Positions 3,756 through 13,058 of a stretch of DNA of 64,000 nt are shown here, one piece after another. The notes beneath the pieces were generated by a model. That model saw only the letters and a list, made by a program, of their open reading frames with translations, was not told where the DNA came from and made no database searches. Position 1 is the first letter of the stretch. Each line of letters opens with the position of its first letter. This DNA is from a bacterium. Its GTDB lineage: Bacteria > Pseudomonadota > Alphaproteobacteria > SP197. The position numbers and the translations under genes were made by a program. The stretch spans positions 26,857 through 90,856 of the forward strand of contig JAPPGE010000088.1 in assembly GCA_028821455.1 (NCBI GenBank), given 5' to 3'.

Positions 3756-4958
3756 TCACCCGAGCGCGCCGTTCGGAAGGATGAGGTTGGCATCATCCAT
3801 GCGTCCAAGTCGTTCGCACAACTGGCGATAGCTGTTGTGAAATTCCTCCCTGTCAACCGAACACTGCGCGATGCGCCTCGGCCCCGACCCCGGGTCGAAC
3901 TCGGTCCGGGCATGGAGAATCCTGTGGTTGTCGAAGACATGGCACTCACCCGGTTGAAGCTTGTGCCGGTAGACAAGGTCAGCGCGATAGATTTCCCGCG
4001 CGAAGGCGCCCAGCGCCTTGTAGGCGGGTTCGATCATCACTTCATCGAGGTCCTGGACGCCCAGGGTGCGATCCGAAAAGCGGATGCCGACCACCTCACC
4101 GTCCTGATCGGTGACAATCATGCGACCACGGGCAACATAGCGTTCCTGGGGGTTGCGCTCGGCGCAGAACCGGAAGGGCTGGCGGGTAAGGAAATCAAAG
4201 GCGTCGGCGTCCCTGGCAGCAAGGCGGCGGGCAGCGAGGAGACCATCGACGAGAATGGACTCGCCGCCCTCTCCCGGTGTCGACTCCAGGCCAAGGTGGA
4301 AACTGATGCCTGGTGGAGCATAGCGCCAACCTTCGTCGGTATGGGGTGCGAGGCGCACCCACCCGCCGGCTCCAAGATTGGTATAGCGGCCCTTCTTCGA
4401 GGGTGGCCGGGTTTCGATCATCGCAAGGGGACCAAAGTCCGTATTGCGCAGCACGCCCAGCCTTTCTGCCAGACGCGCCACCTCGTCATCTCCGGCAGGC
4501 GCTCCGCGCACGCGGGCGAAACCGTAATCGCGCAAGCGCACTTCGAAGGCAAGGAGGGCTTCGTCATCCACGAGGAGCGTTTCCCAGTCCAGCCAGGGAA
4601 ACGCCGCTGCCTCGCTCCCCGTCCAGGTCTGTTGGCGCACCTTGCGTCCCAGGCGCGACGGTCCGTCGTAGGCATTGCGCCGCAGCCAGGCGAGGTCATG
4701 ACGGGTGACGACACCGTCGTCCGCCCACTGGACGACAAGCTCGCCGTTCTCGATGACCGATGAGACAACATCAAGGGAGGCCGGATCATCCGGCAGACGA
4801 AAGGCGTCGTCGGACGCCTGGTCTGACCGGCCGATGGCCGGATGAAAGTGCTGCTGACGCAACCACACGAAGTGATAGTGATTGCGTTCACCATCGGCCC
4901 AGTTGAGGACGATGCGGCGGTCGGGCAGGATGTCGAGCGAGTTCACTGATTGGCTCAT
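3756..4958 (-). CDS. gamma-butyrobetaine hydroxylase-like Fe(II)/2-oxoglutarate dioxygenase (TauD/TfdA superfamily with N-terminal DUF971-like domain)
   Basis: Internal ATG (MSQSVNSL) preceded by GGAGAA RBS. HTDEG facial-triad region and C-terminal TauD-like HxxxxxR-type region. N-terminal domain typical of BBOX/TMLH. Confidence 0.7.
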   Translation of the reverse strand: MSQSVNSLDILPDRRIVLNWADGERNHYHFVWLRQQHFHPAIGRSDQASDDAFRLPDDPASLDVVSSVIENGELVVQWADDGVVTRHDLAWLRRNAYDGPSRLGRKVRQQTWTGSEAAAFPWLDWETLLVDDEALLAFEVRLRDYGFARVRGAPAGDDEVARLAERLGVLRNTDFGPLAMIETRPPSKKGRYTNLGAGGWVRLAPHTDEGWRYAPPGISFHLGLESTPGEGGESILVDGLLAARRLAARDADAFDFLTRQPFRFCAERNPQERYVARGRMIVTDQDGEVVGIRFSDRTLGVQDLDEVMIEPAYKALGAFAREIYRADLVYRHKLQPGECHVFDNHRILHARTEFDPGSGPRRIAQCSVDREEFHNSYRQLCERLGRMDDANLILPNGALG

Positions 4959-5011
4959 CAGGGTTCTCCGGTCTCGCGGACCCTTCGGAGATGGCAGGCT
5001 ATGAGGGCCGC

Positions 5012-5482
5012 ATGATGACTTCAAGGATCCTCCTCATCATCGGTCACGTTCCCTCACCCAATACGCAGCGTCTGCGTGATGCGGTGTTGGAAGGCGCCCT
5101 GTCGATCGATGCAGAAACGGTCGCCGTGGATGCCCGGTCACCCTTCGAGACCATGCCGGACGACGTCAAGGCTGCCGCCGCCCTGGTACTCGGCACGACA
5201 GAAAATCTGGGTTACATGTCCGGCGCGCTGAAGGATTTCTTTGATCGTTGCTACTACCCATGCCTCGAGGAAACCCGCGCAAAGCCCTACGCGCTCTACA
5301 TCCGCGCCGGCCTCGACGGCACGGGAACCAGGCGTGCCGTGGAGAGCATCGCCGGTGGCCTGGGTTGGCGCGCCGTCAGCGAACCCCTTCTGCTGAAGGG
5401 TGAATGGCAGGATGGCTTTGCCGGAGAGGCCCACGAACTCGGCATGCTCATGGCCGCCGGCCTCGATGCCGGCGTCTTCTGA
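5012..5482 (+). CDS. flavodoxin-fold NAD(P)H-dependent FMN reductase-like protein
   Basis: N-terminal ILLIIGHVPSPNTQRL pattern typical of the NADPH-dependent FMN reductase family. GAGGG RBS 5 nt upstream of ATG 5012. Confidence 0.6.
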   Translation: MMTSRILLIIGHVPSPNTQRLRDAVLEGALSIDAETVAVDARSPFETMPDDVKAAAALVLGTTENLGYMSGALKDFFDRCYYPCLEETRAKPYALYIRAGLDGTGTRRAVESIAGGLGWRAVSEPLLLKGEWQDGFAGEAHELGMLMAAGLDAGVF

Positions 5483-6686: not shown

Positions 6687-7931
6687 TCAGTCCCCGTTCG
6701 AGCGGATTGTGCGGGGAAGGCGCGAGAGCAGTTCCGGACCGTCGTCGGTGACGAGAAGAGTCTCGATGAAATTGCAGCCCGTACCGCCCGGCCATCCTTC
6801 CCAGATATCGAACTGATTCTCGTAGTTGAACACCAGACCGGGCTTGACCGTAAGCTGTTCAGCAGTCGGGCCGAAGACCTCCTCATTCCAGTGTATCCAG
6901 TACGCTCCCGTCCAGTCGGGCGGAAACGAAATGCCCAGTGGGTAGCCTCCGATCCACCATGCGTGGTCCTGCAAGCCCACCTTGCGGATGTGCTCGTTGG
7001 CGATCTCGTCGACGCGAGGTAACGGATCACCGAGCTGCACATTCTCGATGATGGCGTCGATCGAGCCCGAGGCCCTTTCCATAACGTCCAGCCATCGGCT
7101 GTCGGCCTTGCCGACCGAGAATGTACGGCACATATTGATGTGGTAGCGGTGAAGCGATCCACAGACGTCGATGTGCACCAGATCGCCATCCTTGACCTTG
7201 CGTTGGATCGGTGGCGAGTGATGGGTGCCCGAGCGAACACCCGATGCAACCATGGTATGGATCGCCGGATAGTTGCAGCCCTGTTCCATCAGGCTTGCGA
7301 CCAGAACGGCTTCGATCGCAGTCTCCGTCATGCCTGGCTTCATGGCGGTGCGTGCCGCCTCGAGCGCGTTGTCGGTCGCAGCTGCCGCCTGCCGCATGAC
7401 CTCCACCTCGCGCGGCGACTTGTAGACACGCTGCGTCTCGACCAGCAACGAGGCATCGACGACTTCTGCTCCCTTGCCTCGCAGCTTTCCGGCAAGCGCT
7501 TCGATGACCGAAGAAACGGGGCCCCAACCCCAGAACTGAAGGCCGATCGTACCACCCGTCAATCCCCGGGCGGCGAGTTCGTCCGCGATGACGTCGAAGT
7601 CGCCGGCGCTGGCCATCGGATCGTGATCAAAGATCACGGCGTCGCGAATCTCAGGCAGCAGCGAAAGGATGGTGGTATGGGCTGCCGTATCGAAGAACAG
7701 GGTGTCGTCGCTGTCCGCCCGCACTACCAGCGTCAGTGAATTGCGCAGATGGTTGTGGATCATGTCGTAGCCTGTCAGCCAGTTGATGTCCGGAAGCCGG
7801 CAAAGCAGGAGAAGATCGACACCGGCATCCGACATCGCGCTGCGCACCTTCTTGCGGCGCTCGGCGTACTCTTCGGGCGGAAACGGCAGTTCCCAATCGA
7901 TCTGTTCACGCAGGTGTGTCTTCAGTTCCAT
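6687..7931 (-). CDS. M24-family metallopeptidase (Xaa-Pro aminopeptidase / creatinase-like)
   Basis: N-terminal creatinase/prolidase domain and C-terminal pita-bread metal-ligand pattern (HID..D, H, E..E). Confidence 0.75.
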   Translation of the reverse strand: MELKTHLREQIDWELPFPPEEYAERRKKVRSAMSDAGVDLLLLCRLPDINWLTGYDMIHNHLRNSLTLVVRADSDDTLFFDTAAHTTILSLLPEIRDAVIFDHDPMASAGDFDVIADELAARGLTGGTIGLQFWGWGPVSSVIEALAGKLRGKGAEVVDASLLVETQRVYKSPREVEVMRQAAAATDNALEAARTAMKPGMTETAIEAVLVASLMEQGCNYPAIHTMVASGVRSGTHHSPPIQRKVKDGDLVHIDVCGSLHRYHINMCRTFSVGKADSRWLDVMERASGSIDAIIENVQLGDPLPRVDEIANEHIRKVGLQDHAWWIGGYPLGISFPPDWTGAYWIHWNEEVFGPTAEQLTVKPGLVFNYENQFDIWEGWPGGTGCNFIETLLVTDDGPELLSRLPRTIRSNGD

Positions 7932-8072
7932 GGTGTTCTCCTCAATGAAACATATGCGCTTTCCCGGTCATCATAGGCGCTATCTCCGGTCTGGCGAAAT
8001 CCGAATGCGATCGCTCGCAAGCGGGCATCCAAGCGCGACTCACACACCGCGGTCCGGGCAGGCCGGTGCGTG

Positions 8073-8837
8073 TCAGGAGCTAGCCGCGTCCTCCTCGACA
8101 GGATTTCCTCCCGCCTCTGCCGATGCACGAAAGACACAGTCGAAGGCGGCATCGAGGCGTTCGCGATCGGTCGAGCTCAGCACGATGCTGGTGCCGAAGA
8201 CGCCGCCATCGCGCCAGGGGTAACTCCCCATGTCGACATCGGGAAACTCCTGCTGGAGGGTGCCGAGAGCACCGGCAATGGTTCCCTCCCCGCAATGGAC
8301 CCTGATGGCACGGGACAGGATGCGCGGCCCTCCGCGCAAGCCGGCACTCGCCGCCCGGAACATGGCCCTCGCAATTTCGGGTACTCCGGCCAGCACGAAC
8401 ACATTGCCGATCTGGAAACCCGGCGCCATGCTCACCTCATTGTCGATGAGCCGGGCGCCGTCGGGGATGCGCGCCATGCGCAGGCGGGCCTCATTGGGCT
8501 CGATGCCGCGTTCGCGTGAGTATGCCACGAGCAAGTCGCGGACTTCGGGGTGAATGCTGATTCCGACGCCGAATGCTGCAGCGATACTGTCGGCGGTGAT
8601 GTCATCGTGGGTGGGACCGATGCCGCCGGTGGTGAAGACGTAGGTATGACGGTGACGCAATTCATTGACGGCAGCGACGATCTCCTCTTCCACGTCACCT
8701 ACCACCCTCACCTCCCTCAGGCGGATGCCGAGTCCGGTGAGATTCTCCGCCAGGAAGGCGATGTTGGCATCCCGGGTGCGCCCGGACAGAATCTCGTTGC
8801 CGATGACCACCACGGCTGCGGTGACAGTTTTGCTCAT
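8073..8837 (-). CDS. CinA-like molybdopterin-binding (MoCF biosynthesis) domain protein
   Basis: Internal ATG (MSKTVTAAVVVIGNEILSGRTRDAN) checked on the sequence (cat at 8835-8837). CinA N-terminal domain pattern. Confidence 0.7.
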   Translation of the reverse strand: MSKTVTAAVVVIGNEILSGRTRDANIAFLAENLTGLGIRLREVRVVGDVEEEIVAAVNELRHRHTYVFTTGGIGPTHDDITADSIAAAFGVGISIHPEVRDLLVAYSRERGIEPNEARLRMARIPDGARLIDNEVSMAPGFQIGNVFVLAGVPEIARAMFRAASAGLRGGPRILSRAIRVHCGEGTIAGALGTLQQEFPDVDMGSYPWRDGGVFGTSIVLSSTDRERLDAAFDCVFRASAEAGGNPVEEDAASS

Positions 8838-8997
8838 CAGGGATTCCCCACCAGGCACCGCCCGAAGTCTGGCCCGCAAGGCGGGTGACTTGCAAACACT
8901 CCGCATACAGACCGGACGGACCTCACCGGATGTGTGCGTTTGCGGACAGGCGAAGCACGGCTATATTCGCTCACTTCCGGATCACGCGGAATTCGAC

Positions 8998-9660
8998 ATG
9001 ACCACCGCCACGCAACGAGCGGAATCCCGGGCCGACCCCCACGCCTACCGACTGATACTGCGCTTCGCGCTTCTCAACATCGTTGCCGTCGCGCTTCTCC
9101 TGGCATGCGAGGCCAACGGCCTTGTCAGCCGGGCGATCGATGCCGATTCGACGTCCTTCGTCTTCGTCATCGTGGTCGTGTTCCTGGTCGGCCTTGCCCT
9201 CGCGTTGCAGCGGGTGGTGTGGACCAGCCGCGAACTCAACCAGGCGAGACAGGCGGAACCCGATCAGGGGAGCCGTGCCGCCGCCCATGTCAAGCGAACA
9301 GCTGGCAAGGATGCAGACAGCCGCCAGACTCTGGCCCAGGCGCTGCGTCTTGAACTCTCGCAGAACATCACCATCATCCGCCATCTCGCCTCGAGTCTCG
9401 TGTTTCTGGGCCTCATCGGTACCGTTCTCGGCTTCATCATTGCCCTTTCGGGTGTCGATCCCGATCTTGCCAGTGAGACGGAGAACATCGGTCCCATGGT
9501 CTCGGCCCTCATCGCCGGGATGTCCACGGCACTCGTGACAACCCTCGTGGGCGGCCTTCTCAATATCTGGCTCATGGCCAACTACCAGTTGCTCACCACC
9601 GGGACGGTCCGGCTCATCAACACCATCGTAGAACTGGGCGAAAGCCGTGCAGGCTCTTGA
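8998..9660 (+). CDS. MotA/TolQ/ExbB-family proton-channel protein
   Basis: ATG at 8998 (MTTATQ). Three predicted TM helices with a conserved C-terminal TM pair (LVFLGLIGTVLGFIIAL...STALVTTLVGGLLNI) typical of ExbB/TolQ. The upstream part of track ORF 8665..9660 overlaps cinA and was rejected. Confidence 0.75.
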   Translation: MTTATQRAESRADPHAYRLILRFALLNIVAVALLLACEANGLVSRAIDADSTSFVFVIVVVFLVGLALALQRVVWTSRELNQARQAEPDQGSRAAAHVKRTAGKDADSRQTLAQALRLELSQNITIIRHLASSLVFLGLIGTVLGFIIALSGVDPDLASETENIGPMVSALIAGMSTALVTTLVGGLLNIWLMANYQLLTTGTVRLINTIVELGESRAGS

Positions 9661-10252
9661 TCCGCTCGATGACGATCCCGCCGCAACTGTCTTTCGCGAC
9701 GTCATTCTGCTTGCCCTGCTGGGATTCGTCGCTCTGGTGATCCTCCTGCTGCCGCACGTCAATCCCCCGGAAAAGAAGACATCCGACCTGATGACGCCAG
9801 GCAACGTGATCGTCGAGATCAAGTGGCCCGAGAGCATCGATGCCGACGTTGACCTCTGGGTCAGGGCTCCAGGCGATGGCGCGGTAGGCTGGTCTCAGCG
9901 CGGCGGCGCCATCTTCGACCTCCTGCGCGATGATCTTGGCTACCTCAACGATCTCACGGCCGCCAATCACGAGATGGCCTATTCCCGGGGTGTTCCGCAC
10001 GGCGAGTATGTCGTCAACGTCCACATGTACCGCAATGACACCGAGATCTGGCCGGTGCCGGTCTATGTCATCATCAGCGTCAAGCTCGACATCGACAAAC
10101 CCGCCCGCCAGATCCTCCTCGGCAAGGTCGACCTCGTGCGTGTCGATCAGGAAGAGACTGTCTATCGCTTCAACCTGAACGAGGCGGGAGGGCTGTTGCC
10201 TCATACCGTCAACAAACTCTACACCTCGCTCTTTGACAGCCAGCGTCTGTGA
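9647..10252 (+). CDS. membrane-anchored hypothetical protein, possibly a diverged ExbD/TolR-like partner
   Basis: GTG start overlapping the upstream gene by 14 nt. Single N-terminal TM with an Asp before the helix (FRDVILLALLGFVALVILLL), reminiscent of the ExbD/TolR/MotB protonatable Asp. No recognisable soluble domain. Confidence 0.5.
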   Translation: MQALDPLDDDPAATVFRDVILLALLGFVALVILLLPHVNPPEKKTSDLMTPGNVIVEIKWPESIDADVDLWVRAPGDGAVGWSQRGGAIFDLLRDDLGYLNDLTAANHEMAYSRGVPHGEYVVNVHMYRNDTEIWPVPVYVIISVKLDIDKPARQILLGKVDLVRVDQEETVYRFNLNEAGGLLPHTVNKLYTSLFDSQRL

Positions 10253-10255
10253 CCG

Positions 10256-10777
10256 ATGTCGCTCGTCGCCATCAGCTTCGTCGCCTGTTTCATGCTGGCT
10301 GCCGTTGCCGGCTGGGCGGCGGTCTCCTCCGCCGGACGCCTGTCCCGCAAGATCGCCGCGCTGGTGGCCCTCGCTCTCCTCGTGCCGGCAGGCTATGGCT
10401 CGGTCAGCGAACTGCTTGGCAGGCCCAAGCCCGTCAGCAGCGCCTGGCTGGAGGACTTCACCACCTATCACACGGTGATCGCCTGGGATATTCACGAGGA
10501 CAAGGCGATCTATCTGTGGCTCGAGATGCCCGACGGCCAGGAACCCAGAGTGTTCGCTTTCCCATACGATACGGCAACGGTCTCGCGGCTGCAGAAGGCC
10601 GGCGAGAGGGCGAAATCACTGGCCAGCAAGCTGCTCGCCCGCCTTGAAGAGACCGGACCGGCAGGCACCAGCCGCCTCGAGTTCACCAGCCAGACCGAGT
10701 TCCGTCGCGAACTTCCCGCCAAGCCCGACCCGGAGGATGAGGATGTCTTCCAGTTCGACGGGAAATCCGAGACCTAG
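10256..10777 (+). CDS. membrane-anchored hypothetical protein
   Basis: Starts 4 nt after the previous stop. N-terminal TM/signal-anchor (LVAISFVACFMLAAVAGWAAV), acidic C-terminus. No family recognised. Confidence 0.5.
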   Translation: MSLVAISFVACFMLAAVAGWAAVSSAGRLSRKIAALVALALLVPAGYGSVSELLGRPKPVSSAWLEDFTTYHTVIAWDIHEDKAIYLWLEMPDGQEPRVFAFPYDTATVSRLQKAGERAKSLASKLLARLEETGPAGTSRLEFTSQTEFRRELPAKPDPEDEDVFQFDGKSET

Positions 10778-12372: not shown

Positions 12373-12612
12373 ATGGCAACGATCTCGCTGAAACTTCCCG
12401 ACCCGCTTGCACTACGGCTTGCTGAAACCGCCCGCAGTAGGCGCACGAGCAAATCTGCCATTGTTCGGGATGCGCTGGATGCCTATCTGTCCGCAAGCGA
12501 GCCACACCCGGAAGGTTCCGCACTGGCGTTTGCCGCTGATGTGAAAGGCGTGCTCGCCGGGCCTCCGGATCTTTCCTGCAACAAGGAGCACATGCGGGGC
12601 TTCGGCCGTTGA
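12373..12612 (+). CDS. vapB: ribbon-helix-helix (CopG/VapB-type) antitoxin
   Basis: 79 aa, N-terminal RHH pattern (ISLKLPDPLALRLAETARSRRTSKSAIVRDALDAYL). Stop overlaps the toxin start (TTGA). Confidence 0.75.
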   Translation: MATISLKLPDPLALRLAETARSRRTSKSAIVRDALDAYLSASEPHPEGSALAFAADVKGVLAGPPDLSCNKEHMRGFGR

Positions 12613-13058
12613 GCATCATTCTCGACACCGGGCCACTGGTTGCATTTCTGAATCGCCGTGACGCATACCATCACTGGGCCGTGGATCAATGGTCGAACGC
12701 AACACCGCCTTTGCTCACTTGTGAAGCTGTCGTCGCCGAAGCTTGCTATCTGGTGCGAACTTTCTCCGGAGGCGAGGCTGCCGTGCTGGAGCTTGTTGCA
12801 CGGGGAGTGGTGGAGATTCCATTTGTTCTGGCTGACCAGGCACACGACGTAGCTCGATTGCTGAAGAAATACTGCAACGTTCCCATGTCCCTCGCCGACG
12901 GCTGCCTTGTGCGCATGGCCGAGAAACTTGCCAGCAGTGCCATCATGACGCTCGACAGCGATTTCGCCATCTACCGCAGGAATGGTCGCGAAGTCATCCC
13001 GTTGCTGACCCCTGACCAGTTCAACCGGGAGCCTCCGGGGCCGGAGCGGTTCACGTGA
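12609..13058 (+). CDS. vapC: PIN-domain ribonuclease toxin (VapC-like)
   Basis: TTG start. N-terminal ILDTGPLVAF with conserved Asp and a downstream acidic residue pattern (TLDSDF) typical of PIN toxins. 4-nt overlap with the antitoxin. Confidence 0.75.
   Translation: MSIILDTGPLVAFLNRRDAYHHWAVDQWSNATPPLLTCEAVVAEACYLVRTFSGGEAAVLELVARGVVEIPFVLADQAHDVARLLKKYCNVPMSLADGCLVRMAEKLASSAIMTLDSDFAIYRRNGREVIPLLTPDQFNREPPGPERFT

Follow-up and report, generated by a model that had tools for sequence, protein, structure and literature searches.

To our knowledge, all members of the MotA/ExbB motor superfamily that have been characterised drive a major process of the cell envelope, namely flagella, Ton import, Tol-Pal division, gliding and type IX secretion (T9SS), or Zorya defence. 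All of the MotA, ExbB, TolQ, GldL and ZorA complexes that have been solved are 5:2 assemblies (PMC9389320, PMC11946911), and the recent proposal of von Willebrand factor A (vWA) domain partners for TolQR-like motors (Mol Biol Evol 2025, PMC12204202) shows that variants with another, uncharacterised class of periplasmic partner exist. Here we consider a 64,000-nucleotide (nt) stretch of an alphaproteobacterial contig (JAPPGE010000088.1, assembly GCA_028821455.1, positions 26,857 to 90,856; hereafter the window, whose positions are used below), which contains a cassette of three genes, g1, g2 and g3 (Table 1). The cassette follows the operon logic of the Ton (ExbB-ExbD-TonB) and Tol (TolQ-TolR-TolA) systems, that is, a channel, a bitopic protein with an Asp in its membrane helix, and a third membrane-anchored periplasmic protein. 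We consider it probable that the trio forms one inner-membrane machine, a novel subtype of the MotA/ExbB 5:2 proton-motor superfamily with periplasmic output. The divergent channel, the membrane Asp and the fixed gene trio make an uncharacterised envelope module coupled to the proton motive force, as an original prediction from the DNA letters had it, the best description, with the proton coupling and an external effector being what we infer. The channel superfamily is already known; the two partners, the minimal form found in phages and the function are undescribed, and no account of the trio or of phage-borne ExbB-like genes was found in the searchable literature, which leaves out most subscription journals and is thus not proof of absence.

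The three genes form a fixed unit. A word-indexed search returned 2589 proteins of the g2 family, the named ones all 'hypothetical' and none with a Pfam domain, and an exhaustive profile search gave 1830 clusters at 50% identity, nearly all of 185-215 amino acids; g2 is encoded at no fewer than 578 loci in a set of species-representative genomes. Among the loci listed, the closest relatives of the window belong to Rhodospirillales-like marine metagenome-assembled genomes (MAGs; 85-99% identity), further carriers include Geminicoccaceae, Kiloniellales, Azospirillum, Hyphomicrobiales, Granulosicoccus and other Gammaproteobacteria, and the outliers are one Nitrospiraceae and one Phycisphaeraceae MAG. 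Seventy-nine loci covering the Alpha- and Gammaproteobacteria, Nitrospiraceae and Phycisphaeraceae were fetched, and the order g1-g2-g3 was found in 77 of them, the remaining two ending at contig edges; all-against-all clustering of the flanking open reading frames (ORFs) of the bacterial loci revealed no conserved fourth gene. The co-occurrence suggested as a check on the original prediction is therefore present, and so is the tight coupling that it described: the ORFs of g1 and g2 overlap by 14 nt, and 3 nt separate the stop of g2 from the start of g3. The 14-nt overlap recurs in 67 of the 79 loci and is therefore a conserved feature rather than a product of chance. With the g2/g3 spacing, which lies between -4 and +5 nt in most of the loci, it indicates co-translation.

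The first protein, g1, matches the Pfam family MotA_ExbB (PF01618) over residues 107-209 with 43.9 bits against a cut-off of 22.9 (E=2.4e-11). It was predicted to be a compact channel of the ExbB/TolQ type, which holds for the family but not for the architecture, as four hydrophobic segments with a predicted MotA-like topology are found instead of three. The NCBIfam and PADLOC models of ExbB2, TolQ, MotA and ZorA are matched weakly and about equally. The NCBIfam equivalog scores are 25.7 bits for exbB2 (cut-off 135) and 19.3 bits for tolQ (cut-off 221), the NCBIfam MotA/PomA matches are marginal (E about 0.01), and the ZorA matches are confined to the membrane core in PADLOC (16-22 bits, E 1e-5) and reach 15 bits against a cut-off of 700 in NCBIfam; the nearest solved relative by sequence is again ZorA (8qyh), at a weak E-value of 1.5e-3. 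This weak and even affinity argues that g1, as far as its sequence can tell, is a divergent MotA/ExbB-family channel in a subfamily of its own. The residues expected to line such a channel are well kept: G135, G138, T139 and G142 in transmembrane segment 3 (TM3) and A175, T178, T179 and G182 in TM4 are conserved in 83-93 of 93 homologues, 33 of them viral, and the corresponding motifs LGLIGTVxGF (GxxGT) and ALxTTLVG (TTxxG) occur in bacterial and viral copies alike. The Thr residues of TM3 and TM4 are those we take to correspond to T148 and T181 of E. coli ExbB. In the alignment, the g1 copies of phages retain all four helices and the channel motifs but have neither the cytoplasmic loop nor the C-terminal tail.

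The second protein, g2, has a single hydrophobic segment (residues 11-41), within which lies D18. This Asp is invariant in an alignment of 20 sequences, and 95 of the 102 homologues compared, bacterial and viral, have it, which bears out the claim of an N-terminal helix with an ExbD-like Asp. The N-terminus of g2 (DPLDDDPAATVFRDVILLALLGFV) is also where its best hhalign match to E. coli ExbD is found, the ExbD sequence having been checked against PDB 6tyi: an acidic N-terminus is followed by a 'T.F.DV.L..L..F' helix, and residues 10-28 align in register with ExbD 17-35, so that D18 falls on D25, with 42% identity and an E-value of 0.08 in this one comparison. When the N-terminal 43-48 residues were scanned alone in ten members of the family, Pfam did not recover ExbD at E<=10. 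Full-length g2 has no match in Pfam, NCBIfam, PADLOC or PHROGs, a sequence search of the PDB with its profile returned chance-level matches only, and a fold search of the viral models in BFVD gave nothing at E<=0.001. The soluble part, which had been called unrecognisable, does lack a family match, but it is not featureless, as the AlphaFold2 model consists of a helix (11-38), a 14-residue linker of low confidence and an eight-strand beta-sandwich (53-177) with a predicted local distance difference test score (pLDDT) of 84-92 by block. The predicted fold of this presumably periplasmic domain differs from the alpha/beta fold of ExbD and TolR. The best structural matches of the model are Ca2+-binding sandwiches, and D67, D69, D95, D96, D102, N107 and E109 are conserved in at least 98 of the 102 homologues; this acidic and polar cluster could form a metal site. 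A place for g2 in the TerD family of Ca2+-binding beta-sandwich proteins was considered and dropped, with an hhalign E-value of 0.067 over 32 columns, no Pfam TerD match and no significant sequence or profile similarity, so that any likeness of g2 to TerD would be at the level of the fold only; moreover, TerD proteins are cytoplasmic and soluble, whereas g2 is anchored in the membrane, with a predicted periplasmic location.

The third protein, g3, was thought to pass the membrane once, a view that has to be abandoned: two hydrophobic segments are present, with helices predicted at 1-27 and 32-54 and a basic loop (RLSRK) between them, which together make a hairpin. The hairpin is followed by a conserved RPKP motif, a beta-beta-beta-alpha unit with the signature 'AIYLWL...EPR.Y.LPW', and a tail with an invariant F...P.K. 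What could answer to the extended Pro-rich or helical periplasmic spacer of TonB and TolA is limited to a short conserved F..P.K / PQPxxPPK stretch and a low-confidence tail of 20-40 residues. The acidic tail noted in the original prediction is real in the clade of the window and confined to it, other clades ending in a Pro-rich F..P.K and an aromatic residue. No family match to g3 was obtained in Pfam, NCBIfam, PADLOC or PHROGs, TonB_C and TolA C-terminal domains (Pfam, NCBIfam) included; PDB matches to its profile were at chance level, and the fold search with its model was uninformative. Neither g2 nor g3 contains an OmpA-like peptidoglycan-binding domain or any other Pfam match. Both the hairpin and the sharing of the module with phages (see below) had escaped the original prediction.

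Two described arrangements invite comparison at the level of the partner proteins. Like g1-g2, the T9SS motors GldL-GldM and PorL-PorM combine a small channel subunit with a bitopic partner that carries periplasmic beta-sandwich domains, and the conserved Arg in the membrane helix of GldM/PorM has a counterpart in R17 of g2, beside D18. Unlike g1, however, GldL has two helices, and GldM is far longer than g2, with four domains that span the periplasm; there is no Pfam GldL or GldM match, no T9SS gene lies nearby, and the taxa differ. The vWA partners mentioned above have, apart from the vWA domain, a TonB/TolA-like SHLS helix and canonical TolR-like genes, none of which is seen in g2 or g3.

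If the trio is indeed one periplasmic-output motor, g1 would form a pentameric proton-channel ring with two copies of g2 in the middle, each held by its single helix, and D18 would be the protonatable residue, facing the conserved T139 and T179 of g1. Proton flow would turn or shift g2 relative to g1, and the work would be delivered on the periplasmic side by the beta-sandwich of g2, held some 14 residues above the membrane and probably Ca2+-binding, and by g3, whose hairpin probably docks outside the g1 ring and whose small periplasmic domain and flexible tail would be shown to a target in the envelope. Since g1 has hardly any cytoplasmic part in bacteria, and none in phages, an output of either kind, mechanical or gating, has to lie on the periplasmic side, as would also be expected by analogy with Ton and Tol. 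A number of points tell against such a machine. The likeness of the g2 helix to ExbD, taken by itself, is not statistically significant at E 0.08, and the Pfam ExbD model (PF02472) has no match to full-length g2 at E<=1. Moreover, the model of g3 is of low confidence (pLDDT 57), and g3, which holds the gene position of tolA or tonB without their defining features, lacks the SxxxH helix motif of TonB and TolA and has no conserved Ser or His in the aligned helices. Finally, given the short linker of g2 and the small size of g3, it is doubtful that the complex reaches the outer membrane, and at the output end the parallel with Ton and Tol may break down.

The cassette is not restricted to bacterial chromosomes. 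A tblastn search of deposited phage genomes with g2 matched ten rhizobiophages. In Rhizobium phage 16-3, a classical temperate phage of Sinorhizobium meliloti, p038 (138 amino acids) is the homologue of g1 (BLASTP 1e-8 over TM3-TM4), p040 that of g2 (38% identity, Asp conserved) and p042 that of g3 (6e-8); PHROGs has no match for g1, g2, g3 or the phage 16-3 genes p038-p042. The cassette is also present in relatives of phage 16-3, in Sinorhizobium prophages and on 40 further IMG/VR contigs, many of which are 48-81 kb long and carry phage hallmark genes. The order g1-g2-g3 is kept in most of the 42 viral loci, and at seven loci where g1 was missed by the hidden Markov model (HMM) a divergent four-helix ORF occupies its position. 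In phage 16-3 the cassette is preceded by the endolysin p029 (phrog_181), the lysis-region genes p032/p033 (phrog_12264/736) and the secreted trypsin-like protease p036, and a protease of this kind (phrog_9683) lies directly 5' of the cassettes of phages 16-3 and RHph_X2_25. Small ORFs interrupt the cassette in the former (p037, p039 and p041; locus L080, NC_011103, 3187-6075), and an HNH endonuclease gene separates g2 from g3 in the latter (L081, 3580-6505). Two of the IMG/VR loci (L083, L084) have a long g1 of the chromosomal type (HMM 13-222) and a g2 of 55-58% identity, and may be bacterial fragments or prophage flanks rather than phage genomes.

A further-reaching and rather speculative possibility, to which we lend only limited credence, is that the cassette is a minimal self-contained 5:2 ion motor of a new functional class whose action is confined to the periplasmic side of the inner membrane, without the outer-membrane pulling of Ton and Tol. 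As an envelope sensor, or as a proton leak under gate control, it might serve superinfection exclusion or abortive infection; alternatively, as a motor, it might drive a periplasmic protease or a lysis step, or license either of them. The smallest version known, with a g1 of some 138 amino acids that has no cytoplasmic domain, would be that of the phages. On the motor reading as such, the phage form would be the most reduced stator-like unit known and a useful minimal system for the study of motor mechanism, and it hints at an undescribed phage-host interaction at the inner membrane. Neither partner in this motor subtype is covered by a model in Pfam, NCBIfam or PHROGs or has a relative of solved structure, and carriers that can be cultivated, such as Azospirillum brasilense Sp7 and phage 16-3, make the cassette directly testable.

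In bacteria the surroundings are those of ordinary genes. Within about 5 kb of the trio the window encodes TauD, flavin mononucleotide (FMN) reductase, beta-lactamase-like, M24 peptidase, CinA-like, epimerase, ribbon-helix-helix (RHH) and PIN, SfsA and MAP proteins, and, in keeping with the original prediction, no TonB, TolA, Pal or OmpA-like domain; TolB and TonB-dependent receptors are likewise missing. A Pfam scan of the 99 nearest bacterial neighbours found scattered housekeeping families, the commonest being Sel1 with five members, and no recurrent integrase or defence family. Across the wider clade of the window the trio stays in synteny with the CinA-like gene, at g2 identities between 99% and about 65%, the GC content of g1-g3, overall and at third codon positions (GC3), is the same as that of the neighbouring housekeeping genes, and a MAFFT alignment shows that a block '..TTTGCGG-N15/17-CTATA(T/G)' 5' of g1 is kept in relatives to about 65% protein identity. 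This block, which in loci L001-L024 stands at matching positions although the intergenic sequence has otherwise diverged, we liken to what we take to be the alphaproteobacterial sigma-70 consensus, CTTGAC-N17-CTATAT, and in the window it looks like a housekeeping promoter of that kind. Because of the synteny, the native base composition and this promoter-like element, we argue that the bacterial copies serve a resident envelope function and are not part of a defence island or the remnant of a prophage.

That the trio might be an ordinary if divergent Ton or Tol-Pal system is suggested by a gene order that parallels tolQRA and exbBD-tonB, by the MotA_ExbB core of g1 with its GxxGT and TTxxG motifs and by the weak matches of g1 to the TIGR models exbB2 and tolQ, but these lie far under the equivalog cut-offs, and the proposal is already contradicted. 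Whereas ExbB and TolQ have three segments, g1 has four and almost no cytoplasmic domain; the periplasmic domain of g2 is a predicted beta-sandwich, and at E<=1 neither Pfam nor NCBIfam makes g2 an ExbD or TolR, or g3 a TonB or TolA, as the original prediction had anticipated; g3, a two-helix hairpin, also seems to be without a long spacer; and the usual partners (TolB, Pal, TonB-dependent receptors) are missing nearby, while phages carry the cassette. We regard this explanation as very improbable. Even less can be said for a paralogue of the flagellar or gliding stators (MotAB, PomAB or AglRQS-like), for which the four-helix MotA-like topology and the marginal MotA/PomA matches might speak. 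Its architecture contradicts it, g1 having a 55-residue loop, itself absent in phage copies, in place of a cytoplasmic torque-generating domain and g2 having no OmpA-like peptidoglycan anchor; motility genes are not adjacent, the cassette is carried by phages, and a stator paralogue is in our opinion scarcely credible.

The main rival to the resident periplasmic-output motor is an anti-phage or superinfection-exclusion device. It would be either an envelope sensor like Zorya or a gated leak of protons by which the cell is depolarised, and would serve bacteria for defence and phages to exclude competitors. The closest PADLOC models and solved structures of g1 by sequence are all ZorA, ZorA-ZorB being likewise a non-flagellar module of the 5:2 type on mobile elements, and the presence of the cassette in a temperate phage, its relatives, prophages and some 40 viral contigs would fit, as would its two copies in some genomes and a patchy distribution among phyla, at identities of about 55%, that points to horizontal transfer. 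Nevertheless, g1 has no long ZorA tail, g2 no ZorB-type peptidoglycan-binding domain, and neither an effector of the ZorC, ZorD or ZorE type nor any other conserved neighbour accompanies them; the housekeeping flanks, free of recurrent integrase or defence families, the CinA-like synteny, the base composition and the conserved promoter-like element are also at odds with such a device, which we hold to be unlikely. A lower probability still is given to a lysis-associated or envelope-remodelling module of phages, of which the window copy would be a domesticated form or remnant and in which the motor would time lysis or feed or regulate the periplasmic protease. The gene order of phage 16-3 speaks for it, and so does a homologue of the protease, which BLAST clustering places immediately 5' of the cassette in 14 of the 42 viral loci and PHROGs in 11 of 36; endolysin families lie upstream in several. 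These endolysins amount to a minority, however; within 3.2 kb most viral loci have no lysis gene, genes for replication and recombination occur there about as often, and the adjacency may merely reflect hot spots for accessory genes. Moreover, the region of the window contains no phage genes, no such protease or lysin is among the recurrent families of the 99 bacterial neighbours, and the chromosomal type is longer, with the cytoplasmic loop of g1, and strongly conserved across classes.

Table 1. Positions of the cassette and of associated features in the window
Feature	Position	Strand	Description
promoter-like element (GTTTGCGG ... CTATAT)	8938..8966	+	-10-like CTATAT at 8961-8966; about 32 nt 5' of the g1 start
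g1	8998..9660	+	220 amino acids, ATG start; MotA/TolQ/ExbB-family four-helix channel subunit (predicted), cytoplasmic loop of about 55 residues
g2	9647..10252	+	201 amino acids, GTG start; bitopic, acidic N-terminus, R17-D18 in membrane helix, 14-residue linker, predicted periplasmic eight-strand beta-sandwich, near-invariant acidic cluster
g3	10256..10777	+	173 amino acids, ATG start; predicted membrane hairpin, basic loop, RPKP motif, small beta-beta-beta-alpha periplasmic domain, disordered Pro-rich/acidic tail
RHH antitoxin-like (Pfam RHH_1)	12373..12612	+	4-nt overlap with the PIN gene; 1.6 kb 3' of the cassette
PIN toxin-like	12609..13058	+	4-nt overlap with the RHH gene

A scan for promoters and terminators of the E. 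coli consensus type gave nothing useful near the operon and did not call the conserved block at 8938-8966. Duplicated cassettes were met in several genomes: g2 is matched twice on each chromid of Azospirillum brasilense and A. argentinense (H1-H7), and A. brasilense Sp7 has two copies of the cassette. On one MAG contig (L038) two whole cassettes stand in tandem, at 46-1545 and 7388-8995 and thus about 7.3 kb apart, and another MAG (MFD04944.bin.2.82) has two on separate contigs (L052 and L078). In the window itself, the overlapping RHH_1 and PIN genes downstream of the cassette look like a type II toxin-antitoxin pair. Upstream, the ORFs of a TauD-family dioxygenase (3756-5024, minus strand) and an FMN-reductase-like protein (4991-5482, plus strand) are divergent and, by longest-ORF coordinates, overlap at their 5' ends by 34 nt, so that the true start of one or the other probably lies further in.

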